From NCBI GenBank assembly GCA_012401045.1, contig GCA_012401045.1_4704.2: a DNA stretch of 64,000 bases. One strand, given 5' to 3'. Positions 1,884 through 63,897 of the stretch are shown one piece after another (positions within the stretch are counted from its first letter, which is position 1; the number at the start of each line of letters is the position of its first letter). Under the pieces are notes generated by a model. It did no database searches, was not told the origin of the DNA, and was given only the letters and a program-made list of their open reading frames with translations. This DNA is from a phage. The translations under genes were made by a program, and so were the position numbers.

Positions 1884-4106
1884 TCAGTTAGTCTGAACCG
1901 GCAGCTTGATGTTTTCAGTGTAGACCTTACGCAGGTTCACAACGTTAATCAGACCCAGCAGCGGGCAGTTGTTAACGAAGCGGCAGCGCGGCTGAACCAT
2001 GGTTTCTTTAGAAACCTGACCGTTACGGGTAACCTGAGCAACAGATACCAGTTCCGGTACGTACAGGAACATACCGAAGGTCAGCGGATCCGGAGAACCC
2101 TGGATACCACGAGACAGGGTCACGAAGATCTTATCGCGCAGCATGACGTTCGGGTTATCTACAACCACGAAGTTGAAGCTTACACCGACGGTACGGAAAT
2201 CGCCATCGGTCTGCAGGAACTGCGGGATGTAGTTGTCAGTTGCTACTACGCAACGCGGTTTCTCATCGGCGTTGGAAGACAGCAGCTGCAGAGCTGGCTG
2301 ATAACCAGACTCGGAGTACATGCGGTATGCCATCTCACGAATCACGTTCATGATCGCAGCAGACACTTCAGCACGACGTTCTGCAGTGGTGGTACCCTGA
2401 ACAGATTTCTCCAGGTCCAGATTGATTTCTTCGAACCACGGACGGATCAGGTAACGACCGAAACCTTCGATCTGGATGTCACCGAACTGACGGAAGCGAG
2501 AGGTCGCAACCGCTTTCAGTGCGTCTTTGTAGCTGAACAGTTTCTCAACCATCAGGTTGTCGAAACGTGCGTTAGCAGCTTGGATCAGAACGTCCAGGTC
2601 AGCAGCGTTTTCTTCCCAATCCAGCGGACGAGGAATGGAGAACGGAGCCAGCAGGCCGATTGCGTAACGTTCTTGCTTCATGTTGAAGTCAAGGTGCTTA
2701 CCGCGTTCACGACGGTTGCTGTTGTTACGGCGGATACGCAGTTCGTAACCAACCAGTTTGAAGCTCAGGTCTTCAGCCAGTTGTTTGAACTCTTCGCTCT
2801 TACGCGGTTGTTCGATGTTGTCCTGATCAACCAGGCGATACAGTTCAGCGTTAGCGCCGTTAACACGCAGACCCGCTTTCTCTACGTTGGAAGAACCGTA
2901 AACTTCGATCGCCAGCTGAGCAGCAGATTTCGCATCGATGATGTCCTGCAGCGCTTCGGCTTTCGCACCTTTAACGTCTTTGGTGTTCTCATCAACGAAG
3001 ATGGAGTGGGTGTCGAACGCCAGGGTCATTTTGCGGAAGTCGCCTTCCAGGGATTTCTGGAAACCGTTGGTGATCAGACCAGATACGTCGAACGGTACGT
3101 AAGAGGTTTTGCTGTGCTTGGTAGATTTGATTTCCACCAGGATTTTGGTCAGCGTGATCTGGGCGTCCAGCGCGTCGGTGTTGTCGCTATAACCGTTAGC
3201 CAGGATGCTATCGTCTTCAGCGATACCGATCATGTCGATCAGTTTATCAACAGCCAGGTAAGACGTTTTATAAGTTACGCCTTTAATTTCGATGTCGCGC
3301 GGAGCAACGATAGCTTTGTCAACGAAGTACTGCGCGTTAGCATCGTCAGCACGATAGATCGGATGCAGATCGGTCACGTCGTTGGACAGAACGTCGTTGT
3401 ACATGAACGCATCCAGCAGCGGACGACGTACCCAATCAGCCGGAGTACCGTCGGCGTTACGACGCAGGTGGTTGAACACCAGCGGACGACGGAAAGATAC
3501 GTCGTAACCGATCTGGTTCGGAGCCAGAACGATGGTGTTGTACAGTTCGTTACCCATGCGGCTCAGACGAGAAGCCTTCACGTTGAACACAACGGAGTAC
3601 GGCATCATGTCACGCAGTTCTTTCTGGTCGTAGGACAGCTGAACCAGTTCTTCAGATTCGCAACCGCAGGAATCAGCAGCCATCATGACGAAGTTAGAGC
3701 TGTCAACTTCACGGCCAGACGGAGTGGTGCTGATGTTCATGGAACGTGCTTGTTTAGCATATTCCACCGGGTTACCATGAGCCAGCATGATCAGTGCTGC
3801 TGCACGAGCCTGCTGTGCGTTCATGGTGAACAGCTGTTCTTCAATACGCTGCTTCTCTTCCGGAGTGGTGGTTTCGAAGCCCAGCATGGACAGAACCGGT
3901 TCTTCTGCTTTACGGATGTCGCTGCTGAAGCTCTTAACATCCATTTCGTTAACCAGTTTGTCCATGGATTTGAAATCAACCTTAGAAGCAGATTCCATAG
4001 ACAGGAAGGTGTTCTCCAGACCTTTGTCTGCTGGTTTGCTACCATTAGCGGTCAGGAACTGGCGAGTGGCCGCGACCTGTTGGCTAAGAAGGGTTTTATC
4101 ATTCAT
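1884..4106 (-). CDS. putative major capsid protein (740 aa); tail sheath not excluded
   Basis: Long ORF with strongly host-optimal codon usage (cgt/ctg/ggt/aac/gaa), AAGGA RBS 8 nt before ATG, hairpin terminator downstream. Size matches major capsid proteins of phiKZ-like phages. No homology search run. Confidence 0.45.
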   Translation of the reverse strand: MNDKTLLSQQVAATRQFLTANGSKPADKGLENTFLSMESASKVDFKSMDKLVNEMDVKSFSSDIRKAEEPVLSMLGFETTTPEEKQRIEEQLFTMNAQQARAAALIMLAHGNPVEYAKQARSMNISTTPSGREVDSSNFVMMAADSCGCESEELVQLSYDQKELRDMMPYSVVFNVKASRLSRMGNELYNTIVLAPNQIGYDVSFRRPLVFNHLRRNADGTPADWVRRPLLDAFMYNDVLSNDVTDLHPIYRADDANAQYFVDKAIVAPRDIEIKGVTYKTSYLAVDKLIDMIGIAEDDSILANGYSDNTDALDAQITLTKILVEIKSTKHSKTSYVPFDVSGLITNGFQKSLEGDFRKMTLAFDTHSIFVDENTKDVKGAKAEALQDIIDAKSAAQLAIEVYGSSNVEKAGLRVNGANAELYRLVDQDNIEQPRKSEEFKQLAEDLSFKLVGYELRIRRNNSNRRERGKHLDFNMKQERYAIGLLAPFSIPRPLDWEENAADLDVLIQAANARFDNLMVEKLFSYKDALKAVATSRFRQFGDIQIEGFGRYLIRPWFEEINLDLEKSVQGTTTAERRAEVSAAIMNVIREMAYRMYSESGYQPALQLLSSNADEKPRCVVATDNYIPQFLQTDGDFRTVGVSFNFVVVDNPNVMLRDKIFVTLSRGIQGSPDPLTFGMFLYVPELVSVAQVTRNGQVSKETMVQPRCRFVNNCPLLGLINVVNLRKVYTENIKLPVQTN

Positions 4107-9041: not shown

Positions 9042-9824
9042 TTAATCGGGATCGGCGTAGAAATGGTGAGGATAGCCGGAGTACGATCCCGCGTTACCGG
9101 TTATGGATTCTTTCTGGGAATCGACGACGAGTGCATAGAACTGTCGGGAATTTGTTAGCGTTGAGAAATAAGAGGAAAGGACTTTTTCATTCAACGCATC
9201 GCAAGGTAGACAGGTGCGACCGCAAAACGTCACGATACGGCCGTCAGGATAGATCTCACGAATCATTCTCCACTCGCCAATATCGACTGGTGATGGCGCT
9301 GCTACACCACCTGTTATCGTTAAGTAACGATCGTACGTGGTATGGCATTCAGGATGAACGTAAATCGGTTGGGCATCAATACTATCGTTTTCTGTTTGAT
9401 CTTTATTCACGTATACCTCAAGGTAGATTGTTGGTAACCCGGTTAGAACGCCAGTGTCACGACGTTTTTTGGTAATCCGGGGACGGATATTATCGAGCAC
9501 GCCTTCCAGTTTTTCTGCGACTTCGTCAGCCGGTAATATATACCCGTATGTTGGTTCTGGGTCATCACCGTGGCTAAATAAGATACGACAGTCGTTTTTA
9601 TTAAATTCTATATCTTCAGGTGGGAAGATGATGACGCGAACCGTATGGCGTTCTGCGATATAAAATCCTTCAGGCCCCTCAGTTTTGGTAAGTGTAAAGG
9701 ACCAGGATGAATGATCTTCAAGTGACGTGCCTGCCAGGAAAAAGTCCGCCCGAATTGGTGCGTTCCATTTCGCGATCATATTGGCGTGACCAATAACGCC
9801 TAATTTTTGATAAATATCTGTCAT
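9042..9824 (-). CDS. hypothetical protein (260 aa), paralog of 8054..8956
   Basis: ATG with GAGG RBS; conserved promoter-like motif lies upstream; paralogy as above. Confidence 0.7.
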   Translation of the reverse strand: MTDIYQKLGVIGHANMIAKWNAPIRADFFLAGTSLEDHSSWSFTLTKTEGPEGFYIAERHTVRVIIFPPEDIEFNKNDCRILFSHGDDPEPTYGYILPADEVAEKLEGVLDNIRPRITKKRRDTGVLTGLPTIYLEVYVNKDQTENDSIDAQPIYVHPECHTTYDRYLTITGGVAAPSPVDIGEWRMIREIYPDGRIVTFCGRTCLPCDALNEKVLSSYFSTLTNSRQFYALVVDSQKESITGNAGSYSGYPHHFYADPD

Positions 9825-9858
9825 GATTGTATCCTCGGTTATTAAGAGAATTTACAAC

Positions 9859-9910
9859 GATAACAGTAACCGCTGTTATCACCTAGGTAATGTAGTCGCG
9901 AAATAAACTG
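9859..9910 (-). promoter_or_regulatory. conserved ~30-nt promoter-like motif (ATCACCTAGGTAATGTAGTCGCGAAATAAACTG) with adjacent palindrome GATAACAG-N6-CTGTTATC
   Basis: Near-identical copy at ~47084-47135 and partial copy at ~1696-1715, each upstream of a minus-strand gene start and downstream of a family hairpin. Confidence 0.4.
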
Positions 9911-9930
9911 GAGTAATGCGAAATAAGACA

Positions 9931-9975
9931 GCATAAGCCCTCTCCCAACCCGTAAGGGAAGGGAGAGGGAATATT
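9931..9975 (-). terminator. hairpin of the GCATA-CCCTCTCCC...GGGAGAGGG family
   Basis: Abuts stop of 9974..11341. Confidence 0.55.
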
Positions 9976-11341
9976 AAACGGTTGGACGAACGGTGTTGTC
10001 TTTTTCTGGTGCAAGCCATAACGTGACCGTACCATGGCATGTCCACTGTGGTTCACGTACAGAAGAACCTGCCATTGTAACAGCGCAATCGGTACGCATG
10101 ATAACCCCGTATGCTTCGCAGAGATTGTTATCTTGCATCCACACAACTTTAGCAGGCATGCCGGGATACAACATATCCATGTTTGCGTATTCCCACACCA
10201 ACTGCATTGTTCTACCGCGTAATCCAGCAGTATTACTTAATTCACGCCATCGGTTATCGGTTACGCGTCCCATCCCTTTCGCCACCTTCACGTTATCGCT
10301 ACGTTCTTCAGTTACGTACTCGCTAACGTTTACGGTACGACTGATTATCGTATCACCCCCTTTTGATAACGTCATTCCCTGACTCATCTGACTTGCCGAA
10401 ACAAAACGCCCACCCGCATTACCTAACAACGAAGCCGCGTTATTGATGTCGCTTACCGACGCCCCTCTCGTACATGCAATTTCCACGTATTTGTCACGAT
10501 TGATCCAGGTCTTGTCCATGCCCGGAAACATGTCGGCAGGATAGTTGTAAAAGATAGCCGTGCGCCGACCGTCAGAGAAACGGGTTTCGTCGTAGAGAGG
10601 ATAAATATACAGATACGGAGATTGATAATAACAACCGACATCCGCTGAATAAATACCGACCTGGTTCTGGATTTTGTCTACGAGATCCATTGCGTTGGTG
10701 CCGTGCGGAAGAATAAGCAACTTGAACAGGTTGTCGTTATTCGGTGCAACAATATCCACGCCCTGCATTTTGAACCCGGTGTCGGCTTCAACCGCAGAAA
10801 GTATCTTGCTGAATTCGAGCCGTAACACATCCAGCACTTTCGACCCGGTATAGTTTTCACCGGTTTCTGATTGCATGAAGCTTTCAAGAACAGGATCGAA
10901 CAGTTGAAATTGAAGATCGACCATTTGTTCGTAGTCTTTCTTCGAAGAATCGGTTGCGGTACGTTCGTCGTTAGCAGACATACGACTGTCTACGGTTGTT
11001 AAACAAACCGCTCGGTAGACGTAAGCTTGTGCGGCATCGTCTACGGTTTGGCGTTGTCCGCGCATCAGGCTGTACGCCTGCACGATGATGCGCATTTTAA
11101 GTTGTTGTTGGTACGGTAGAATGTATTTTCCGTAACTGCCGGGCGGGAACTTTACAGAGATATAGAGTTCATCTCCAGCGTTACGTTCATAGTCTCGATA
11201 CGTGTGGACTTGAGTCACTAAAGGAACAGACACCGTCATTGACGGCGTGATTAATTCCGCGGTGACTTTATACGCAACAGCAACTGCTTCCTGCGCAAAT
11301 GTACCGATATACCGTCCTAACGGCGTCTGTTTGTAATCCAT
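9974..11341 (-). CDS. hypothetical protein (455 aa), likely virion-associated
   Basis: Long ORF, stop abuts hairpin terminator; translationally coupled to upstream gene. Confidence 0.7.
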   Translation of the reverse strand: MDYKQTPLGRYIGTFAQEAVAVAYKVTAELITPSMTVSVPLVTQVHTYRDYERNAGDELYISVKFPPGSYGKYILPYQQQLKMRIIVQAYSLMRGQRQTVDDAAQAYVYRAVCLTTVDSRMSANDERTATDSSKKDYEQMVDLQFQLFDPVLESFMQSETGENYTGSKVLDVLRLEFSKILSAVEADTGFKMQGVDIVAPNNDNLFKLLILPHGTNAMDLVDKIQNQVGIYSADVGCYYQSPYLYIYPLYDETRFSDGRRTAIFYNYPADMFPGMDKTWINRDKYVEIACTRGASVSDINNAASLLGNAGGRFVSASQMSQGMTLSKGGDTIISRTVNVSEYVTEERSDNVKVAKGMGRVTDNRWRELSNTAGLRGRTMQLVWEYANMDMLYPGMPAKVVWMQDNNLCEAYGVIMRTDCAVTMAGSSVREPQWTCHGTVTLWLAPEKDNTVRPTV

Positions 11342-54881: not shown

Positions 54882-57494
54882 TTAAGCGTCCGGCGTAAAA
54901 TCAAAAGGAATGTCCGTACGAATGATACCATAACGTTTTCCGAGGAAATAAAACTCTTCGGGAACCTGACCGGGAATAATGCTATCACCGATGAACTGCG
55001 GATACGCCCAGATGTACTGAGTGAGTCCTTCGAACATATCCAGGTTATTTGCGTGGTTACCCATGATACGTTTCCAGAGTTCGCGTTTATACGGCGTTTT
55101 AACATCGAAACCATAAAGCGGTGCAAGATCTTCACCAGGAACAAATCCCAGGTAATAGTGAATCTGACTAACCGGGAAACCAAGCGTATCTCGCGGAATG
55201 GTGATCGCTTGCTCAGCTTTGGTGACATGCGTTTCAATAATCCAGTCGTAACACTCTGAATAGAACCGATCGAATTTCTCTGGATTATACCATGCTTTGG
55301 GAAGATTCAGTTTCTCCGTGAACGCATTCGACATGATCGTCGGTAAGAACGGAAGAACACCGGTTTTGATCTGCGTGTATTTCGATTTTACCCGGTTAAC
55401 CAAATTCCAGCAACTGTATCCTAACTGTTCGTTACAAAACTCAACGTAGAGATCGTAATCACCGCCGGATAATGGGTTGTTGATATCACCAATGTCTGCA
55501 GCGTATTTGTTGGGATATCGGTTATTGAAAGCCAGTTTGGTTTGGTAATCGTAGATACACGGTTTGTTGTTCGCTGTATTGATCCACCACCAGGGTTCAC
55601 CCACCTGTACACAAATGTCCTGGACATGAGGGTAAATAATATCGGCAAACGCGGTTAACACATCCCCTAACCACGCCATCGCCTGTTGGTTACATGGAGA
55701 CAGCAACCAGGACGGTGGTGTATATCCGGTTGCTGCGATGTTTCCTTCCCAATCCTGCTGCGCCCACTCGAACGGGCAGGCTGTACTCATCAATTCGTAA
55801 CTTAAACTGATGGTGACAGAGAAATGGTGTTTTGCAGCATATGCGGCGAAAGCTTCATGCCACGCGATACAGGGTGGATTTAATACATCCGTGGTGTTCA
55901 CCAGTAACTTACCCGCACTTGGCGTCCAGACAGTATCGTAGAAATGCGACATTCCAACATAATGCACTAATTCATCTTGATACCCCGCATAAACCAGGTT
56001 CTCAAATACACGCTCTGGCGTGATGTTGTAATGGTCATCGTAAGCGGTTATCGCACGAAGTTCGTGTGGTGTACAGTGGTGACGATTAACCGTCATTTCC
56101 TGATACACCCCATCGATAGGAAGAATCTCGAGGGTTAAACCGAGGTCGATTGGCGTTTCCAGATAGGTCGTTTCAGTCGCACCTTCCTTATAATGTCGAG
56201 AACTCATGCTGAACATCAACGATGCTACCGATTCGAGTTCGATAGGTTCGTCAGCATAGAACCCCGCCATTGCGTCATTGAAATCGATCGTTACGATTGC
56301 GCTTCTACCGTCTTCAGAGACATCGGTGGCGTATCGGGTTAATGAGATATACTGACGGCTATCGTCTTTGTGTACGACGGTTAAAACCGGCGGGTTTTCG
56401 GTATCTGCAAAGTTACGCTGATCGCCAGTAAACGTGATCTTCGCTTTAAAGATCAAACCGAATAACGACGTCATGGGATCATACGCAATACAACCGTGAT
56501 CCAGCGTATCCGTTGTCCGCCATTCTATCCCGACCAACCCGTTAGCGGTATGGCATCGCATATACGCATTAAGGACCATGTCTTCACTGACAACCGCGAA
56601 GTTCTCTGTTGACTGACCGTTGATAATCCAATACATCGGTTGCCAGAGGTTACGCGTACCTTTTGCGTAGCGGTAGGTTGGTGCGCCTTTAGGGTTGCCG
56701 TTATTGAGATGGAATACGGCAGTACCTTGATAATGGTCGTTCGTATTAATCGGAACACTGTAAGCGTCACCGAGGTCCGTACGTTCCACCTTCGTGACCG
56801 TTGCGTTTTCAAATAACCCACGCAACGCTGGTAAACCGATATCTTCAGGCGCGTTTTCTCGACGAATCGCATCCGCGATGCGATGGGCTAAGGCGGGGTA
56901 AATAGCTTCACCCTGTTGTAGGTTTGCAAGACCTACAAAGCGATCAGGGTCGATACCAGCAATCAATAACTCAACATCACCCTTCGTTCTATCGTCGTTA
57001 AGATATTTCAGTCCGGTAAGGTCAAGATGCTGAATAAGCGACAACAGGTTGTATTTACGGTTTTCAACAGTTAGTACAAGATCGCCTGCCCAAACCAAAC
57101 TTCCCTCATCCGCTGTTACTTTAACGGATTGTCGGCCTGTGGTAGACGTTGTTGTCGTTTTATTTAATTGTCCTTGTAGGAAGTCGGTTGCGAGGTCAAA
57201 GGCAATACCGTAACGGTCAGCGACCGCTTGCATGATTTCACGTAACTGGGTATCTTCTTCAATGATAATCTTGACAGGTATTCCCAAGAACGCTTTAGCA
57301 AGGTCTCGTTTAACCAACGAGACGAATACGGATTTGTAGTATCGGCTTCCATCTTTCCCTTTAAAAAGAATGGAGGTTGTTTCGGGTGCCGATAGAACAC
57401 GTGCAAATACAACATCGTCGGAAGTAAGAGAAAGTCCGTTTTTCTCGTTGACCAATCTTAGTATTTCATTTTGCGCGGTTTCATGTAACTTCAT
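54882..57494 (-). CDS. putative tailspike/receptor-binding protein (870 aa) with N-terminal anchor domain
   Basis: N-terminal ~170 aa homologous to 63370..63897 (RDLAKAFLGIPVKII block); Trp-rich C-terminal region (GEPWWW); lies in tail fibre module. Confidence 0.55.
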   Translation of the reverse strand: MKLHETAQNEILRLVNEKNGLSLTSDDVVFARVLSAPETTSILFKGKDGSRYYKSVFVSLVKRDLAKAFLGIPVKIIIEEDTQLREIMQAVADRYGIAFDLATDFLQGQLNKTTTTSTTGRQSVKVTADEGSLVWAGDLVLTVENRKYNLLSLIQHLDLTGLKYLNDDRTKGDVELLIAGIDPDRFVGLANLQQGEAIYPALAHRIADAIRRENAPEDIGLPALRGLFENATVTKVERTDLGDAYSVPINTNDHYQGTAVFHLNNGNPKGAPTYRYAKGTRNLWQPMYWIINGQSTENFAVVSEDMVLNAYMRCHTANGLVGIEWRTTDTLDHGCIAYDPMTSLFGLIFKAKITFTGDQRNFADTENPPVLTVVHKDDSRQYISLTRYATDVSEDGRSAIVTIDFNDAMAGFYADEPIELESVASLMFSMSSRHYKEGATETTYLETPIDLGLTLEILPIDGVYQEMTVNRHHCTPHELRAITAYDDHYNITPERVFENLVYAGYQDELVHYVGMSHFYDTVWTPSAGKLLVNTTDVLNPPCIAWHEAFAAYAAKHHFSVTISLSYELMSTACPFEWAQQDWEGNIAATGYTPPSWLLSPCNQQAMAWLGDVLTAFADIIYPHVQDICVQVGEPWWWINTANNKPCIYDYQTKLAFNNRYPNKYAADIGDINNPLSGGDYDLYVEFCNEQLGYSCWNLVNRVKSKYTQIKTGVLPFLPTIMSNAFTEKLNLPKAWYNPEKFDRFYSECYDWIIETHVTKAEQAITIPRDTLGFPVSQIHYYLGFVPGEDLAPLYGFDVKTPYKRELWKRIMGNHANNLDMFEGLTQYIWAYPQFIGDSIIPGQVPEEFYFLGKRYGIIRTDIPFDFTPDA

Positions 57495-57516: not shown

Positions 57517-58158
57517 TTAAATGTACTGCTTACCGCCCACGAAGGAAGTTAACCAGTTCCCGCTGACGAGTTGTGATACCCAGCCTGGAACGGCTCTACC
57601 ATTCTGGCTCATGATGTTACCACACCAACCAGGGAATCCGGGACGGATGTAATAGAAAGTTAAATTGTAGAGATGGCAATTCCATACCGCAACGTTATGT
57701 TTACCAGAAACCGCTTTAAAGACAAACGCGACAGGTAACGGAGACGATAACAATTCGGTCACAGGGACGGCTGACCAGTTCGCATTCGCGTTCCATGGTT
57801 GCCAGGTATGGCTGCGCGAGTCGCAATATACGTTACCGTTGTTACCGCGCCCACCCGCATTCCACCACAGCGACGGACTCATGTTCTTAAGTGAGGTAAA
57901 TTGCTGCGGTGGAATATTCGGAATGATAACAGGGTTGGTGCCTTGTCCATGTTTCTTTTCTTTTGCGTTCACATAGCCGTTTATCGATTCGAGGTATTTG
58001 GTACCAGGATAATTGTTCTGGACTTGTGTCGCAATATCACGAACGTCGAACGTCCAGCAGATCATGGTGTTGTAGTAAGCATCGGTGTTGTCGTACCATG
58101 CGTTACCATCTTGTAAACGTGCACCACTATTCGGTGTTTTATCTGTGCTTATAGCCAT
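57517..58158 (-). CDS. hypothetical protein (213 aa), paralog of 58261..58917; fibre-module accessory protein
   Basis: Shares PGFPGW[AC]GN[IV]MSQNGRAVPGW[AV]SQLVSGNWLTSFVGGK C-terminus and HGQ...VPNIP block with neighbour. Confidence 0.65.
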   Translation of the reverse strand: MAISTDKTPNSGARLQDGNAWYDNTDAYYNTMICWTFDVRDIATQVQNNYPGTKYLESINGYVNAKEKKHGQGTNPVIIPNIPPQQFTSLKNMSPSLWWNAGGRGNNGNVYCDSRSHTWQPWNANANWSAVPVTELLSSPLPVAFVFKAVSGKHNVAVWNCHLYNLTFYYIRPGFPGWCGNIMSQNGRAVPGWVSQLVSGNWLTSFVGGKQYI

Positions 58159-58260
58159 GGTGTTGTCCTATACGTTGGTGGTTGAGGTGGCGGATATCGG
58201 ATGCGTGTTGTCGTCAGGTAATACATACAGAAACGCCCACTGATAAAACAGCAGCTTCTT

Positions 58261-58917
58261 TTAAATTGAATTTAGATATCGCTTACCACCAACAAACGAC
58301 GTCAACCAGTTCCCTGAAACAAGCTGCGAAGCCCAGCCAGGCACTGCCCTACCGTTCTGACTCATCACGTTACCTGCCCATCCCGGAAAACCTGGTACCA
58401 TTTCGTATATATTGAACGATTCTATCTGGAACGAACCAAGCTTAACGTAGTGCGTTGTTGATCGGTACTTAAATTCAATAATAACAAAGAACGGATGTGA
58501 TTGTAAGTCGGACATTCTAATAGGTGCCGAGAGATTACCCGCCGACCATGGTTTCCACGTATGCTTACGGCTATCACAGTCAATATTACCCATTGAACCG
58601 TTAGCTGACGCGTTCCAGAATAGCTTATAGTCATACGCGGCGACATCGCCACTCCATCCTTGGAGAGGTATATTTGGTACATATACCCCGTTATTCCATT
58701 GTCCGTGTTGAATTTCTTCAGCATCGCCATGCCCAGAGACATATTCTAAGTACGCGTTTGGGTGTCTAGCGACGACTTCTCGCGCAAAAGAACGCAAGTC
58801 AAAAAGATGGGCGACAATGCTGTTATTATAAGCCACTCTCCAGCCGGGATCACGCCACCCTAATTTGCCGTCAGCGTGCCTTCTAGACGTGAACCCTATA
58901 GTTCGCGCTATTGCCAT
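58261..58917 (-). CDS. hypothetical protein (~218 aa), paralog of 57517..58158
   Basis: Track ORF extends to 58968 inside a hairpin; internal ATG (codon 18) has GAGG RBS and aligns with the paralog N-terminus (MAI...). Confidence 0.6.
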   Translation of the reverse strand: MAIARTIGFTSRRHADGKLGWRDPGWRVAYNNSIVAHLFDLRSFAREVVARHPNAYLEYVSGHGDAEEIQHGQWNNGVYVPNIPLQGWSGDVAAYDYKLFWNASANGSMGNIDCDSRKHTWKPWSAGNLSAPIRMSDLQSHPFFVIIEFKYRSTTHYVKLGSFQIESFNIYEMVPGFPGWAGNVMSQNGRAVPGWASQLVSGNWLTSFVGGKRYLNSI

Positions 58918-58963: not shown

Positions 58964-59006
58964 GCCATAGCAGCTCCTCCAACCCGTCAGGGAAGGAGGA
59001 GCATAC
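58964..59006 (-). terminator. hairpin (GCTCCTCC aacccgtcaggg AAGGAGGAGC) downstream of lipoprotein gene
   Basis: Loop sequence identical or near-identical to other family members. Confidence 0.55.
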
Positions 59007-59010
59007 TTAA

Positions 59011-59517
59011 TTACTTACTGATAACCTCAACGGAGTTGGGATCAGCGATCAATGCACGGTCGGTAGAACAATTGAAGAAGACCATCCCAACACCATCGCC
59101 GTTCGAGTTCAGGGTTGAACTTGCGTAAGACAATGTTGGTTTATTCATGCGGTAGAAGCGTTCGCTGGTTGCGGTATTGAACCCCAGGTCAACGTAGTCT
59201 TTCACCGTGGTATACAACTGGGTGGACTCGAAAACGGTTACCGGAGAGTCAACGGTAAATTGACTACCTTCGTCCACAACCAGAACTTTATCGTTCCAGA
59301 TTTCAGTGGTTGAGAACTTCGGTTTCCAATGTTCGAATTCCTGGGTTGCACCCCAGCAAGAATACACAGCGAGATTGCTGTTCTTCTCGACTGGTTTCAA
59401 ACCCACCAGTTGCGTCAGGTCTTTATCCAGGTTCGGTAAACCTTCCAGCGTAGCACACCCACCCAGAGAAAGCACCATCAACATACCAAGAACGATCGCA
59501 CAAAGTTTCTTCATCAT
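59011..59517 (-). CDS. predicted outer-membrane lipoprotein (168 aa)
   Basis: N-terminal MMKKLCAIVLGMLMVLSLGGC: signal peptide with lipobox-like LGGC, Ala at +2. AAGGA RBS. Sits between tail fibre gene and fibre-module paralogs. Confidence 0.6.
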   Translation of the reverse strand: MMKKLCAIVLGMLMVLSLGGCATLEGLPNLDKDLTQLVGLKPVEKNSNLAVYSCWGATQEFEHWKPKFSTTEIWNDKVLVVDEGSQFTVDSPVTVFESTQLYTTVKDYVDLGFNTATSERFYRMNKPTLSYASSTLNSNGDGVGMVFFNCSTDRALIADPNSVEVISK

Positions 59518-59565: not shown

Positions 59566-62500
59566 TTACTTTTTGAGCGCTTTAAGTTCTTCTTCCATCG
59601 CTTCCACTTTTGCCGTAAGCTTCTGTACTTGTTTGATTAATGGAACCACCAAACGTTCGTACATAACACCTTCGGCGACGAGTCCGTTAGAAGAAACGAT
59701 AGCGGGGTCATCTTCTTCGGTTGCATCACGCCAATGCACGTATTGTGGTGCGATCTCACCAACCTCTTCGGCAATCAACCCATACCAACCCCAATCCTTG
59801 TTGTCGGCTTCGCAGGTAGAACGATACCAGACAGGACGCATCTCCAATACTTTATCCGCTTGTTCATCCGTGATATTCTCGATATCTTTCTTATAGCGCC
59901 GCGACGACGTTGAACGAAACACATTGTTGATCCCAGCAGTAGGACTGATATACATATTAGCCCCGCTGGTTGTAGTGCTAATGTCCCATACCGCAAATCC
60001 GCCGTTACTCCCATTTCTCACGACCAACGTATTGGCAATAATATCCAGGTTATTGTTGTAACCGGTTAACTGGTTTTCGGTGACAAAATCGGATAAGTTA
60101 ACGGAGTAGTTCTTGCTGTTATAACAACGACGCCATCCTGGGCTGTTGGTGCTGCCATTATAGTTGTCGTAGCTATAAATGAACTCGGAGTTGGTTTTCG
60201 CACCACTGACGGAAGACGTGGTTGCGGTGGTAACACGGATAGTGTAGTTCGTCATCCCGAAGCTAACGACCTCGATAACCGCACCAGCCAGAGGAATAAT
60301 ACCACATTTGGTTTCACTGTCTGGGATGTATGCGCTATCGGCAGCAGCGAAGGAGCAACGTGCGACCCAGGCACGGGTATTGAATGCACCTTGGTTCTGT
60401 AATAACGTAATAAACGATGAGGTCGTAATCGAGCTGTTATTATCACCTGTGATCAACCAGCCGGTTGGACATGCGGTAGCACCAACGTTTTTCGCTGTTA
60501 GCGTGATGTTCTTCGATCCGTCGAAGGCTACGCCGCTGATGGTACGTGCAGTCTGTAGCTTCGTCGCCGTTGCCGCGTTCCCTGATGTGTTCTGGTTCCC
60601 TGCCGCATTAACACCAGGCAGATTGATGTTCGCACTACCGTCGAAAGACACCCCGCCAATGGTGCGGGCTGTTTTCAGTTTTGTCGCCGTGGCGGCATTA
60701 CCGGTTGTGTCTTGGTTACCGGTGGTGTTTACCCCAGGTAGATTGATATTTGCCGTTCCGTTAAATGAAACGCCGCCAATCGTCCTTGCCGTTTGCAACT
60801 TCGTTGCAGATGCCGCATTCCCCGTGGTGTTTTGGTTGCCTGTTGTATTCACACCCGGGATACTATCCTTAGATGTGTAGATCTGTGCCCATTCCGACCA
60901 TTTCGCATCGGTTGAATCACGACGTGAACGTAGGTAAGCTGGAGCGTGTGCACCCGAGGTACCTGACCATCCAATGAGGATTTCACCTTCGCCGACCGAT
61001 GAAGCGCCTTTAAGATGAACAACGTTACCGTAGGCTGTAGGGTATCCGTTATTGTACGCTTCATACATCTGGATACCCGTATTGCTGCCCTGGGTCGCAT
61101 TAGCTAAAGCGGTGACCCGTCCCTTGGAAGCGAGCACGTTAATGCTAAAGCTAATATCGGTTGTACCGTCAAAGGCGACCCCATTAATCCTCCGCGCTGT
61201 TTGGAGTTTCGTGGCAGTAGCCGCATTACCAGAGGTACTCTGATTGCCTGCTTTGTTCACACCTGGTAAATCAATGTTGGCGGTTCCATCAAAGGACACG
61301 CCCCCTATGGTTCTCGCCGTCTGAAGTTTTGTTGCTGAACCAGCGTTTCCGGAAGTGCTTTGATTACCCGCCGCGTTGACACCTGGTAGGTTAATGCTAG
61401 CAGAACCATCAAAAGAAACTCCACCGATCGTAATAGCTGTTCGCAACTTCGTGGCTGTCGCAGCGTTACCCGTCGTATTCTGATTACCAGCTGCATTGAC
61501 GCCAGGTAATGCGATATCAGCTGTGCCATCGAACGCGACACCTCCGATTTTACGGGCGGTTTGTAGCTTGGTTGCTGTAGCAGCATTACCGCTGGTATTT
61601 TGCGTACCGGCTTTATTTACACCAGGAAGATCGATGTTAGCAGAACCATCGAAGCTGACGCCACCTATCGTTCTTGCAGTAGCAAGTTTAGCGGCTGTAG
61701 CAGCGACGTTACCGACTTTTAACCATTCTCCCCATGGACCATCCACACCGTTCCATGATGCCGTTAAACTGCGCACGTATATGTTTCCTGTACGTACTGT
61801 GTAACGTTGTGTTCCACCGAATTGACCGGCTGGGAGCACTTCGATGTAACCTACAGCATTTGCTTCAGGGAAATTGTGGGCAGCATCGGCATTCGTTGAT
61901 GTTTGTTTGGACCAAATACCCACAGACGCTTCAACCGGACCGTAGGTATCCAGATTTGCATCGGTGGGGAGCTGTCCTCGAAAACGTCGGAATAATGAAG
62001 CCGATAACCCCAACGTTGTTTGCATCCCTTCAATGCTTGACTGCGATAGAAGCGCCCGAGCTGTCGACGTGATGGCCGCTAAAGCAACCTTATCCGTACC
62101 GGTAAAAAACGGGAATTTGTTTGCTGATGTTGCTAAACCTGAAAGGGCGGTCAGTAATGCGTTAAGGGGTTGTTTCCCGGCTAGCGCGTTAGTCACAGTC
62201 GTTGCAAAGTTTGGATCATTACCTAACGCTTGAGCTAACTCGTTAAGCGTATTTAGCGCTTCTGGAGACGAGTCGATCAGCGACGCGATAGCACGCATCA
62301 CAAATTCCGTGTTGGCGATCTGTTGACTGCTATCGTTCTCTGCAGCCGTAGGTGCTGCTGGGATACCGGTGAACACAGGGTTATTAAGATCCGCCTTAAG
62401 GGCGATGAGACGTCTAAGTGCTTCAACATCGACTTTCAGGTTTTCCCATCCGACGAGATAACCATCACCGGTTGTGTGATAACGGTTGTACCAAAAATCG

Positions 62501-63363
62501 CCATTAACGCCAAAATAAAATATTCCCTTCTCTTCGTATTGTGGGCCAGAACTGTTCCGTGATGAGCTAATGTATTTTATTTCGATAAGGCCGTTGAATA
62601 CCACTCCTGGGATTATTTTGTTGTCTCCAGCTGACTGTGATACCTGGTAAATCCCCGGGGTTGCGGCTTTAACCCACGTTAAGAATTCTGTTACTCCAGC
62701 GGTACCGCTGAAATTCTTAACGTCGGTAAGTATTGCCCCATAACCGAACATACCGGGTAGAGCCACTCGTCCGCTGGTACGGTCACGAATATCTGTTGCA
62801 ACAACAGGTAATTGTTTACGAACGGCATTAACCGCTTTAGGTGTGGCCGATTTTGTCTCGTCGTCGCTATCGGTTTCATTACTTAGAATAGTTAAACCGC
62901 GTGTAGCAGTAGTTGCATCAGGAAGAAATGCGTTATCCAACACCTTAAGCTGTACTGCACTCGTATTACTAACAACGACATGCACTTGACAGTTAAGAAC
63001 GCTGGTTGCGCCTTCGGTAGGCGTAGGCTTATATCTTTCTGGTGCACTGCAGACGGCAATCAGAACACCTTGGTCATCGTACAGACCGATCTCACGTACC
63101 CAGAACCCACCTTGACCAGCAGGAATAATACCCTCAACGATAATCCTGGTTGTGCTATCACCATCCGCATGGATATTAGAAACTTCCCCACGATAAACTT
63201 CGTGAACAAGCGCTGTTTGGCTGGCGGTCGGGGTTGGGATCGAGCCGTTACCATCACCAACGGCAAAGTGTGTGATTTTTAGTTTCTCACCGTCGGGAAG
63301 TAACGCGGCGGTGATACGTTCTGCTCCTTTATCGGTAACTACCGTTATATATGCTGTACTCAT
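59566..63363 (-). CDS. tail fibre protein (1265 aa) with tandem ~40-aa fibre repeats and C-terminal S74-type intramolecular chaperone domain
   Basis: N-terminus resembles tail-fibre N-terminal domains (ITHFAVGDGNG...WVREIGLYD). At least eight repeats of NAATATKLQTARTIGGVSFDGSANINLPGVN. C-terminal SSRRYKKDIENI...WYGLIAEEV matches the S74 chaperone domain pattern. Confidence 0.8.
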   Translation of the reverse strand: MSTAYITVVTDKGAERITAALLPDGEKLKITHFAVGDGNGSIPTPTASQTALVHEVYRGEVSNIHADGDSTTRIIVEGIIPAGQGGFWVREIGLYDDQGVLIAVCSAPERYKPTPTEGATSVLNCQVHVVVSNTSAVQLKVLDNAFLPDATTATRGLTILSNETDSDDETKSATPKAVNAVRKQLPVVATDIRDRTSGRVALPGMFGYGAILTDVKNFSGTAGVTEFLTWVKAATPGIYQVSQSAGDNKIIPGVVFNGLIEIKYISSSRNSSGPQYEEKGIFYFGVNGDFWYNRYHTTGDGYLVGWENLKVDVEALRRLIALKADLNNPVFTGIPAAPTAAENDSSQQIANTEFVMRAIASLIDSSPEALNTLNELAQALGNDPNFATTVTNALAGKQPLNALLTALSGLATSANKFPFFTGTDKVALAAITSTARALLSQSSIEGMQTTLGLSASLFRRFRGQLPTDANLDTYGPVEASVGIWSKQTSTNADAAHNFPEANAVGYIEVLPAGQFGGTQRYTVRTGNIYVRSLTASWNGVDGPWGEWLKVGNVAATAAKLATARTIGGVSFDGSANIDLPGVNKAGTQNTSGNAATATKLQTARKIGGVAFDGTADIALPGVNAAGNQNTTGNAATATKLRTAITIGGVSFDGSASINLPGVNAAGNQSTSGNAGSATKLQTARTIGGVSFDGTANIDLPGVNKAGNQSTSGNAATATKLQTARRINGVAFDGTTDISFSINVLASKGRVTALANATQGSNTGIQMYEAYNNGYPTAYGNVVHLKGASSVGEGEILIGWSGTSGAHAPAYLRSRRDSTDAKWSEWAQIYTSKDSIPGVNTTGNQNTTGNAASATKLQTARTIGGVSFNGTANINLPGVNTTGNQDTTGNAATATKLKTARTIGGVSFDGSANINLPGVNAAGNQNTSGNAATATKLQTARTISGVAFDGSKNITLTAKNVGATACPTGWLITGDNNSSITTSSFITLLQNQGAFNTRAWVARCSFAAADSAYIPDSETKCGIIPLAGAVIEVVSFGMTNYTIRVTTATTSSVSGAKTNSEFIYSYDNYNGSTNSPGWRRCYNSKNYSVNLSDFVTENQLTGYNNNLDIIANTLVVRNGSNGGFAVWDISTTTSGANMYISPTAGINNVFRSTSSRRYKKDIENITDEQADKVLEMRPVWYRSTCEADNKDWGWYGLIAEEVGEIAPQYVHWRDATEEDDPAIVSSNGLVAEGVMYERLVVPLIKQVQKLTAKVEAMEEELKALKK
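60470..61700 (-). repeat. tandem ~120-bp repeats encoding the 40-aa tail-fibre repeats, in two blocks split by a non-repeat insert
   Basis: Antisense track ORFs 60308..60880, 61052..61243 and 61496..61804 show the mirrored periodic peptide pattern. Confidence 0.7.
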
Positions 63364-63369
63364 GGTGTT

Positions 63370-63897
63370 TTATCCTGGATAAATAGTGATGATATCACCA
63401 ATGACAGTTGTGGCACCGGCGTAAAGATGAGCCGGAGATACATCGTGTTGGTTTGTCACAGTAAGATCCAATCGACCACGCCAAACCATGGAGGTATTTG
63501 CGATGGGGATAGAAATCTTTTTGGATATATCGTCACGAAAATCAATAACAGTGGCAAGGGTAACCGCATCAAAGTCAACGTCGGGGTCAAAGACGAACCC
63601 GTATTGATCTGAAATCGCCCGAATAATCGCATGTATAGTTGTTGTCTCAACGGACTCTAAAACGATTTTTACCGGTATTCCTAAAAATGCCTTCGCGATA
63701 TCGCGTCGAGCGTAAACGATAAAACTTTCACCACACCACTTTGTTCCTTCATTTGCTGTGACGATCACTTTTGCCCTGTTAGCACCAGAACTCCCATCCA
63801 AGGTTAATGTAAGATCGGAGTTGCTGAACACGCTACTGTTACGTCTGTTTATCAACGACGTCAGTTCGTCTTTCCATGGCGGGTAAAGTGAACGCAT
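63370..63897 (-). CDS. fibre-anchor-domain protein (~175 aa), homolog of N-terminus of 54882..57494
   Basis: Track ORF starts at TTG (63918); ATG is codon 8 with GGAGGAGGG 11 nt upstream. RRDIAKAFLGIPVKIV block. Same frame as the downstream fibre gene, separated by TAA plus two codons. Confidence 0.6.
   Translation of the reverse strand: MRSLYPPWKDELTSLINRRNSSVFSNSDLTLTLDGSSGANRAKVIVTANEGTKWCGESFIVYARRDIAKAFLGIPVKIVLESVETTTIHAIIRAISDQYGFVFDPDVDFDAVTLATVIDFRDDISKKISIPIANTSMVWRGRLDLTVTNQHDVSPAHLYAGATTVIGDIITIYPG

Follow-up and report, generated by a model that had tools for sequence, protein, structure and literature searches.

What is a duplicated orphan gene, whose two copies differ in most of their length and end in nearly the same 40 residues, doing near the tail fibre gene of a jumbo phage? 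The pair in question lies on the minus strand of a 64,000-nt stretch of contig GCA_012401045.1_4704.2 (phage assembly GCA_012401045.1), the whole of which we refer to as the window. According to the list of open reading frames (ORFs), paralog 1 (p1; 57517..58158) encodes 213 amino acids (aa) and paralog 2 (p2; 58261..58917) encodes 218 aa. A reading made earlier from the letters alone (the sequence-only reading) had proposed that they are fibre-associated factors, either assembly chaperones or accessory adhesins, one per receptor-binding protein. We tentatively favour an answer that we consider possible, somewhat short of probable: p1 and p2 may be low-copy, virion-associated accessory glycan-binding proteins (adhesins), each built from an exchangeable domain with a carbohydrate-binding module (CBM)-like fold and an invariant docking or oligomerisation element.

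The two proteins share 88 of 188 aligned residues (47%; BLASTP E 4e-59), which bears out the sequence-only reading in its description of two adjacent ~215-aa paralogs with near-identical C-terminal 40 residues. The motif that it quoted, PGFPGW.GN.MSQNGRAVPGW.SQLVSGNWLTSFVGGK, is correct, and identity reaches 36/41 in the last 41 residues against ~35% over the preceding ~147 aligned residues. The divergence that it had placed at the N-terminus is indeed found there but is not confined to it, since it spans the whole first ~170 residues. As for the surroundings, the lipoprotein and fibre genes do lie upstream of the pair, whereas the gene on the other side, described as tailspike-like, combines DUF7941 with an N4-gp65-like TIM-barrel and is no classical tailspike.

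Within p1, the motif occupies residues 173-213 (PGFPGWCGNIMSQNGRAVPGWVSQLVSGNWLTSFVGGKQYI; 57520..57642, minus strand), a stretch recognised by alignment columns that vary little or not at all within the family; the motif of p2 (PGFPGWAGNVMSQNGRAVPGWASQLVSGNWLTSFVGGKRYL; 58273..58395, minus strand) was placed by alignment with p1 and the family. A six-frame translation of the window held no further occurrence outside the two genes. Between the two copies the proportion of non-synonymous differences (pN) in the motif is 0.09, while synonymous sites are saturated: where identical residues allow a choice of codon, only 9/32 use the same one, which is close to random expectation, and a Nei-Gojobori proportion of synonymous differences (pS) of 0.95 is unremarkable in the light of this codon-by-codon count. 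Saturation at synonymous sites excludes recent gene conversion as the source of the alike C-termini in the window. Together with the low pN, it points to an old duplication after which strong purifying selection at the protein level has preserved the motif, and p1 and p2 evidently are ancient duplicates. In homologs of 21-30% identity, too, no part is better conserved than the motif.

Neither p1 nor p2 matched any model in Pfam, PHROGs, NCBIfam or PADLOC; the family profile found no match among PDB sequences, and the 42-residue motif alone gave one match there at chance level (E 0.086). Homologs came from larger collections. A word-seeded search of 5.8 billion clusters returned four family clusters, 1.84 billion representatives, searched exhaustively with a profile, yielded 11 members, all with the motif, and a profile search seeded with distant members returned 13. 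The closest annotated relative is Goslar_00087 (gp087; QBO63880.1 / YP_009820772.1, 'hypothetical protein') of Escherichia phage vB_EcoM_Goslar, a 237-kb nucleus-forming jumbo phage of the genus Goslarvirus that infects Escherichia coli. It is the ortholog of p1, with 96% identity, equal length and the same neighbours (gp86 and gp88), and it stands as a single copy, unlike the two genes of the window. Both p1 and p2 are homologous to it over their full length, including the motif FPG(W)...NG.A.PG.(A)SQL..GNWL..F.GG..YL. Every member-bearing contig longer than ~10 kb resembles a large phage (49-237 kb), and a scan of IMG/VR yielded Goslar-like contigs only. We thus regard p1 and p2 as belonging to an undescribed, jumbo-phage-restricted family whose founding annotated member is Goslar gp087, a protein to which the literature searched assigns no function.

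The predicted fold divides the protein in the same way as the conservation does. An AlphaFold2 model of p1, built from a 6-sequence alignment (pLDDT 76, pTM 0.73), has a confident beta-sandwich at residues 1-172, then a segment with pLDDT < 50 (residues 175-205, in the invariant motif) and a final strand at 209-212 that rejoins the sandwich with a pLDDT of ~86. The pattern recurs in the model of a long homolog (P0013; 18 sequences, pLDDT 77), which scores ~90 in the N-domain, 45-60 in the motif and 70-80 in the C-domain. Such long members (316-369 aa; L015 10001-11107, L018 8001-9110 and L024 8001-8951) carry a second beta-sandwich after the motif, which is therefore internal. A motif that is conserved yet modelled with low confidence is typical of partner-dependent elements. 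The p1 sandwich can be superimposed on the CBM96/DNRLRE folds 7VBO and 8WAB at an identity of 6-9%; because identity is this low and no sequence model fires, CBM-like is here a predicted fold class and not a family membership. A Foldseek search of BFVD returned Goslar gp087 and a single homolog, of 370 aa; beyond these, beta-sandwich domains from phage tail proteins were matched weakly. Substitutions between orthologs, mapped onto loops and strands, showed no enrichment in loops.

The sandwich part has a history of its own, as a comparison of the window with locus L002 (Logan DRR595539) illustrates. In the flanking genes gp88, gp86, gp85 and gp84 the two encode proteins that are 97-99% identical, with synonymous divergence (dS) of 0.08-0.45, whereas identity falls to 76% for p1 as a whole and, in comparison with either paralog of the window, to 39% for the gene that L002 has in the p2 slot. 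For p1, dS is 1.8 and the non-synonymous divergence (dN) 0.21 in codons 1-172, against a dS of 0.04 in the last 41 codons. This jump at the start of the motif indicates that the beta-sandwich part was imported from a far more divergent lineage, with the breakpoint at the motif start, and the sandwich is evidently swapped between phages as a cassette.

Which alleles a phage carries is independent of the tip of its fibre. The window and L002 have in common a tip with Peptidase_S74 (S74), an intramolecular chaperone (94.7% over 431 aa), and differ in their alleles of both slots, as given above; the window and locus L011 (Logan SRR14509708) have p2 genes that are 97% identical and tips that differ (S74 versus Caudo_TAP-dependent); and p1 is 96-98% identical across three fibre tip types. 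The idea that presence of p2 goes with S74-type fibres, as in the window and L002, was discarded, given that L011 combines an intact p2 with a fibre of the type served by a separate tail fibre assembly (Tfa) protein.

Loss of copies has struck both members of the pair. In Goslar (the genome itself, 237,307 bp, is locus L014) and in ten other Goslar-like loci (L003-L010, L012 and L013), p2 is missing: positions 58211-58876 of the window (666 bp) are absent from these single-copy genomes, and the 177-bp gap left behind keeps the p2 ribosome-binding site, its ATG (ATGGCGATAGCGCGAACTATAGGGTTCACGTCC) and the first ~11 codons. This remnant indicates that the two-copy state is ancestral and that one inherited deletion removed p2, so that the single-copy genomes do not count as independent observations. 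The reverse is found in L011, where p2 is intact and p1 (2441-3085) has a GTG start, the nonsense change W98* (in-frame TGG-to-stop) and the substitution G200R at an invariant motif residue; judging from this single Logan short-read contig, L011 p1 is probably a pseudogene. Reciprocal loss of this kind argues that neither copy is individually essential, with the caveat that its L011 side comes from one short-read assembly. In L022, a single member (the P0005 allele) stands between a 90% identical gp88-like lipoprotein and gp85, without gp86 or an adjacent fibre.

Some single-copy genomes retain a further trace of p2. Nucleotide tracts of p2 type interrupt the p1 motif in Goslar (L001 9121-9243), where they cover the central ~45 nt, and in L012 (8516-8638), where they lie at the 5' side, while none was found in L003-L010, which carry the same p2 deletion. 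The two tracts record independent recombination with a p2 copy, and this implies either continuing recombination with two-copy phages or a deletion allele that was itself spread by recombination.

Outside the Goslar clade, what recurs is the place beside a fibre gene. In the SPLA10-like clade (Salmonella phage SPLA10 and metagenomic relatives; L015 and L017-L021), in L023 and in L024 (a 237-kb contig with DUF7941), the homolog lies directly downstream (30-170 nt) of a fibre-like gene. These fibre-like genes are orthologous, encode 575-681 aa, are 32-65% identical to one another and match Peptidase_S74 in every locus where the product was looked up or scanned; that of L023 is cut by the contig end and was assigned by BLASTP alone (47-51% over ~470 residues to the 575-aa fibres). 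Whether short or long, the family member sits at one and the same place, downstream of orthologous S74 fibres. BLAST detected nothing similar to the window in these fibres or their neighbours, and the same fibre adjacency amid dissimilar surrounding genes indicates that the linkage has outlived extensive divergence.

The Goslar ortholog has been detected in virion preparations. Liquid chromatography-tandem mass spectrometry of Goslar virions recovered gp087 (HOV27_gp087, YP_009820772.1, 23.6 kDa) with 4 peptides and 28.6% coverage, and low/median/high estimates of its copies per virion were 12.7/19.1/30.0 (Table S4, bioRxiv 10.64898/2026.04.21.720040). Median estimates from the same table are 52 copies for the Tfa protein gp089, 43 for the fibre gp090, 4.5 for gp086, 4.9 for gp092 and 1.2 for gp091. 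A fibre- or baseplate-associated protein would be expected at about the level estimated for gp087, which is suggestive of virion association. The DUF7941 proteins, which include gp86 and gp91-93, are suggested to build a baseplate-anchored cloud of filaments with carbohydrate-binding and hydrolase domains (bioRxiv 10.64898/2026.04.21.720040), and since a role in host recognition is proposed for them, p1 and p2 sit in a host-recognition block. The peripheral baseplate and fibres of Goslar were not resolved in the recent cryo-electron microscopy (cryo-EM) structure (bioRxiv 10.64898/2026.04.21.720040).

As modelled, each protein is a single beta-sandwich domain of ~170 residues, followed by an almost invariant stretch of 40 residues with many Trp, Gly, Pro and Asn that loops out before the last strand returns to the sandwich. 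If p1 and p2 are indeed adhesins, the protein would be placed in the host-recognition apparatus, in the region of the peripheral baseplate or the fibres. There the invariant element may serve as a constant interface that either docks the protein on a conserved phage partner or oligomerises, and the beta-sandwich as an exchangeable specificity domain that touches surface polysaccharide. Two tandem copies would then provide two specificities, and the loss of either could be tolerated without loss of viability. A more ambitious version of this proposal, which we consider rather unlikely, holds that the invariant element is a new docking module, of a polarity opposite to that of usual receptor-binding proteins, by which free-standing glycan-binding cassettes open to horizontal exchange would be plugged onto the fibre or peripheral baseplate of jumbo phages, that the p2 and p1 slots form a swappable adhesin array setting host range independently of the tip, and that the motif DNA doubles as a recombination handle.

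Several observations weigh against the adhesin reading. The conserved loop, rich in Trp, Asn and Gln, could equally be the ligand site instead of the docking site, and the constant part of p1 and p2 is C-terminal, the opposite of most receptor-binding proteins. No sugar-binding sequence signature was found; the CBM match is at the level of the fold, where beta-sandwiches routinely match CBMs, and neither the DNRLRE model (NCBIfam NF033679) nor any Pfam CBM matched at E values up to 0.1. Virion association is suggestive only, because thymidylate synthase, an obvious contaminant, was estimated at ~20 copies, the level of gp087, and because the virion preparation also held nucleus-shell and PhuZ material according to its authors; gp087 is moreover outside the cryo-EM atomic model and goes unmentioned in the text (bioRxiv 10.64898/2026.04.21.720040). 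Synteny has its exception in L016, whose homolog follows a thymidylate synthase gene among small genes, with a tail protein and a weak DUF7941-like gene lying ~5 kb upstream. Finally, no partner protein is common to all lineages: the gp88 and DUF7941 neighbours are missing from the SPLA10-like loci, and BLAST detected no homology between Goslar-type and SPLA10-type fibres. For the same reason gp88 and the DUF7941 proteins are not supported as a universal partner of the motif.

Much of this would also be expected if the pair encoded a fast-evolving, non-structural accessory protein, for instance one acting in anti-defence, host takeover or superinfection, and if the virion signal were contamination. 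An orphan family that is hypervariable, dispensable, duplicated and reciprocally lost fits such a role, as do a mass spectrometry (MS) level equal to that of the contaminating thymidylate synthase, the small and non-structural-looking genes around the L016 homolog and the absence of the protein from the cryo-EM map as modelled. What this explanation leaves unaccounted for is the fact that in three diverged lineages an orthologous fibre gene lies directly upstream, the co-orientation within the structural block here, and a CBM-like fold of extracellular type; PADLOC gave no match either, although its models describe defence and not anti-defence. We consider a non-structural role unlikely on balance.

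Alternatively, the protein could be a structural connector without receptor function, its sandwich a scaffold or decoration and its motif an oligomerising element, that joins or stabilises the fibre, the DUF7941 filaments or gp88 at the peripheral baseplate. A stoichiometry of gp087 near that of the fibre chains in the MS data, the conserved place beside fibre genes, the low confidence of the invariant motif in a monomer model and the fact that the gene always neighbours gp88 in the Goslar clade, L022 included, would all suit a connector. A main domain that is exchanged as a cassette and retains 39-76% identity while its partners are 97-99% identical would not be expected of one, and neither would the free loss of copies, which makes this alternative improbable in our judgement.

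Very improbable, finally, is the proposal that p1 and p2 are trans-acting fibre assembly chaperones, one per fibre or receptor-binding protein and perhaps staying on the mature fibre like Tfa of the Mu/P2 type: the genes do lie downstream of fibre genes, and the presence of the true Tfa gp089 in Goslar virions at ~52 copies makes virion association compatible with such a role, but no chaperone family, whether Caudo_TAP, gp38 or another, resembles p1 and p2, an S74 intramolecular chaperone is already part of the fibres of the window and of three other lineages, Goslar types have a separate Tfa besides gp087, the L022 member has neither an adjacent fibre nor gp86, and the alleles do not co-vary with the tips (same tip in the window and L002, same p2 in the window and L011).

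The chaperone part of the sequence-only reading is thus not supported, and neither is its one-to-one pairing with receptor-binding proteins. In Goslar, p1 stands alone although a fibre and gp86 are both present; in L011, p2 is intact beside a p1 with a nonsense mutation; L022 keeps one copy in a locus lacking the supposed clients; and the window and L002 share a tip (95%) while their p2-slot genes are 39% identical. The broader suggestion of a fibre-associated factor survives in outline, as an adsorption-related virion accessory, on the strength of the CBM-like fold, the linkage to fibres, the hypervariability and the MS detection of gp087.

Among known systems, the closest functional analogy to the mechanism proposed for the adhesin reading is offered by gp38-type adhesins. 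These fibre-tip proteins of T2/T6/S16-like phages are small, are encoded downstream of the fibre gene, combine conserved attachment and Gly-rich elements with hypervariable parts, and set host range. Sequence comparison against Pfam and PHROG models reveals no relationship between them and p1 or p2, and p1 and p2 have the opposite polarity, their constant part being C-terminal. Moreover, the sandwich is CBM-like in p1 and p2 and of polyglycine II (PGII) type in gp38-like adhesins, and p1 and p2 alleles do not co-vary with a tip to which their attachment is putative.

The CBM96/DNRLRE modules, namely TM6-N4 of alginate lyase Dp0100 (7VBO) and a chondroitin-sulfate-binding CBM (8WAB), have a beta-sandwich fold similar to that of p1. 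They are parts of multidomain enzymes, whereas p1 and p2 are free-standing and have the invariant C-terminal loop in addition; the likeness is one of fold.

Caudo_TAP proteins (PF02413) such as Goslar gp089 resemble p1 and p2 in size class, in adjacency to fibre genes and in their presence in virion preparations. Neither Caudo_TAP nor T4 gp38 (PF05268) was matched by p1 or p2 in the Pfam and PHROG searches, however, and genuine Caudo_TAP genes occur separately in relatives; the p1/p2 family is found together with Tfa in Goslar and, in the window, alongside an S74 fibre that chaperones itself. The DUF7941 filament proteins (Goslar gp22, gp23, gp86 and gp91-93) share the block with p1 and p2. 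They are proposed elements of host recognition with carbohydrate-binding domains, and they assemble by means of a disordered segment docking on a partner domain (bioRxiv 10.64898/2026.04.21.720040). DUF7941 (PF25613) matches the gp86-like and gp91-like proteins but neither p1 nor p2, the p1/p2 motif appears by eye unrelated to the gp86 and gp91 sequences, and the family also occurs in loci without annotated DUF7941 genes.

What is new here is the family itself; its likely kind is a familiar one, that of an accessory carbohydrate-binding host-recognition protein with a conserved anchor and a variable domain. How nucleus-forming jumbo phages recognise their hosts is poorly understood, and an orphan family with a constant-plus-variable build provides a testable lead. 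If p1 and p2 are adhesins, they would represent an extra, easily swappable determinant of host range that could be engineered in candidates for jumbo-phage therapy, and the invariant motif would be a handle for finding the docking partner. If they are not virion proteins, all that is left is a hypothetical gene that has been duplicated and whose tail is unusually conserved.

Positions 40000-64000 of the window have ~94-96% nucleotide identity to Goslar over most of their length. An N4-like podovirus had been our first impression, as the 870-aa neighbour of p1 matches N4 gp65 'non-contractile tail sheath' models, and was dropped in view of this identity. All genes of the block lie on the minus strand, within a run from gp92 to gp84 that encodes the fibre and the DUF7941 host-recognition proteins. 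In the order of transcription they are a gp91-like gene, the fibre gene, the lipoprotein-like gene, p2, p1, the 870-aa gp86-like gene and then the equivalents of gp85 and gp84. The gp91-like gene (63370..63897) encodes a small DUF7941 protein (Pfam) of 175 aa from ATG 63897; the ORF finder starts it at TTG 63918 (182 aa), while the orthologs of relatives have 175 aa and match ATG 63897. The gp86-like gene (54882..57494), which begins 22 nt past the p1 stop, encodes DUF7941, NCTSP_N and TIM-barrel_NCTSP domains (Pfam; N4 gp65-like). A scan for sigma-70 promoters and terminators was uninformative, promoter-like sites being fewer than in shuffled sequence; chimalliviruses transcribe with RNA polymerases of their own.

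A 102-nt spacer (58159..58260) containing the p1 ribosome-binding site separates p2 from p1. For p2, we favour a start at ATG 58917 (MAIARTIG..., with GAGG 6 nt upstream) over ATG 58968, which would give 235 aa, because the former aligns with the MAI... starts of p1 and the other members and the latter lies, directly after a hairpin, in DNA that is intergenic in Goslar. In Goslar itself, the region between 00087 and 00088 (L001 9760-9936) contains a 24-codon remnant ORF (MAIARTIGFTSSTHPISATSTTNI, then a stop codon) in which the p2 start (~11 codons) is fused to the spacer preceding p1; the deletion junction has a short ambiguous overlap of up to 9 bp. In L002, the slot-2 allele (9224-9991; cluster P0004) has no stop codon of its own and reads through the whole p2-p1 spacer, which adds a 35-residue hydrophobic tail (KLLFYLWVFLYVPP...) and ends 9 nt before the p1 start. 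As P0004 stands for 135 member sequences, this C-terminal extension is stable.

The hairpin just mentioned (58973..59002), between the lipoprotein gene and p2, spans 30 bp, with an 8-bp GC-rich stem (GCTCCTCC/GGAGGAGC) and a 14-nt loop. The loop is inverted in Goslar and L011 (100% match on the opposite strand), a loop flip between close relatives. Upstream of it, the gp88-like gene (59011..59517, minus strand; 168 aa, phrog_9559) encodes a classical lipoprotein precursor (MMKKLCAIVLGMLMVLSLGGC...) with a signal peptide and the lipobox LSLGGC. All Goslar-like loci, L022 among them, carry it at 90-99% identity, and it is the constant upstream neighbour of the family there. In Goslar virions gp088 was estimated at a median of ~737 copies, which places it among the 12 most abundant unmodelled proteins, and the authors describe its function as unknown (bioRxiv 10.64898/2026.04.21.720040). 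This abundance could reflect co-purified membrane vesicles rather than incorporation into virions. In lying beside a fibre gene, this lipoprotein gene is reminiscent of T5 Llp and other receptor-blocking lipoproteins.

The tail fibre gene of the window (59566..63363, minus strand) encodes 1265 aa, with a Phage_tail_fib N-terminus, ~44-aa repeats and the C-terminal Peptidase_S74 intramolecular chaperone (Pfam and PHROG). Its tip has been swapped among relatives. That of the window is the self-cleaving Peptidase_S74 chaperone, without a Tfa gene; the Goslar fibre (L001 10901-14875) has a Gly-rich tip followed by the separate Caudo_TAP gene gp089 (L001 10485-10901); and a third kind of tip is present in L007. 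Relatives also differ in how many ~44-aa repeats they have, which gives fibres of 1009-1324 aa.

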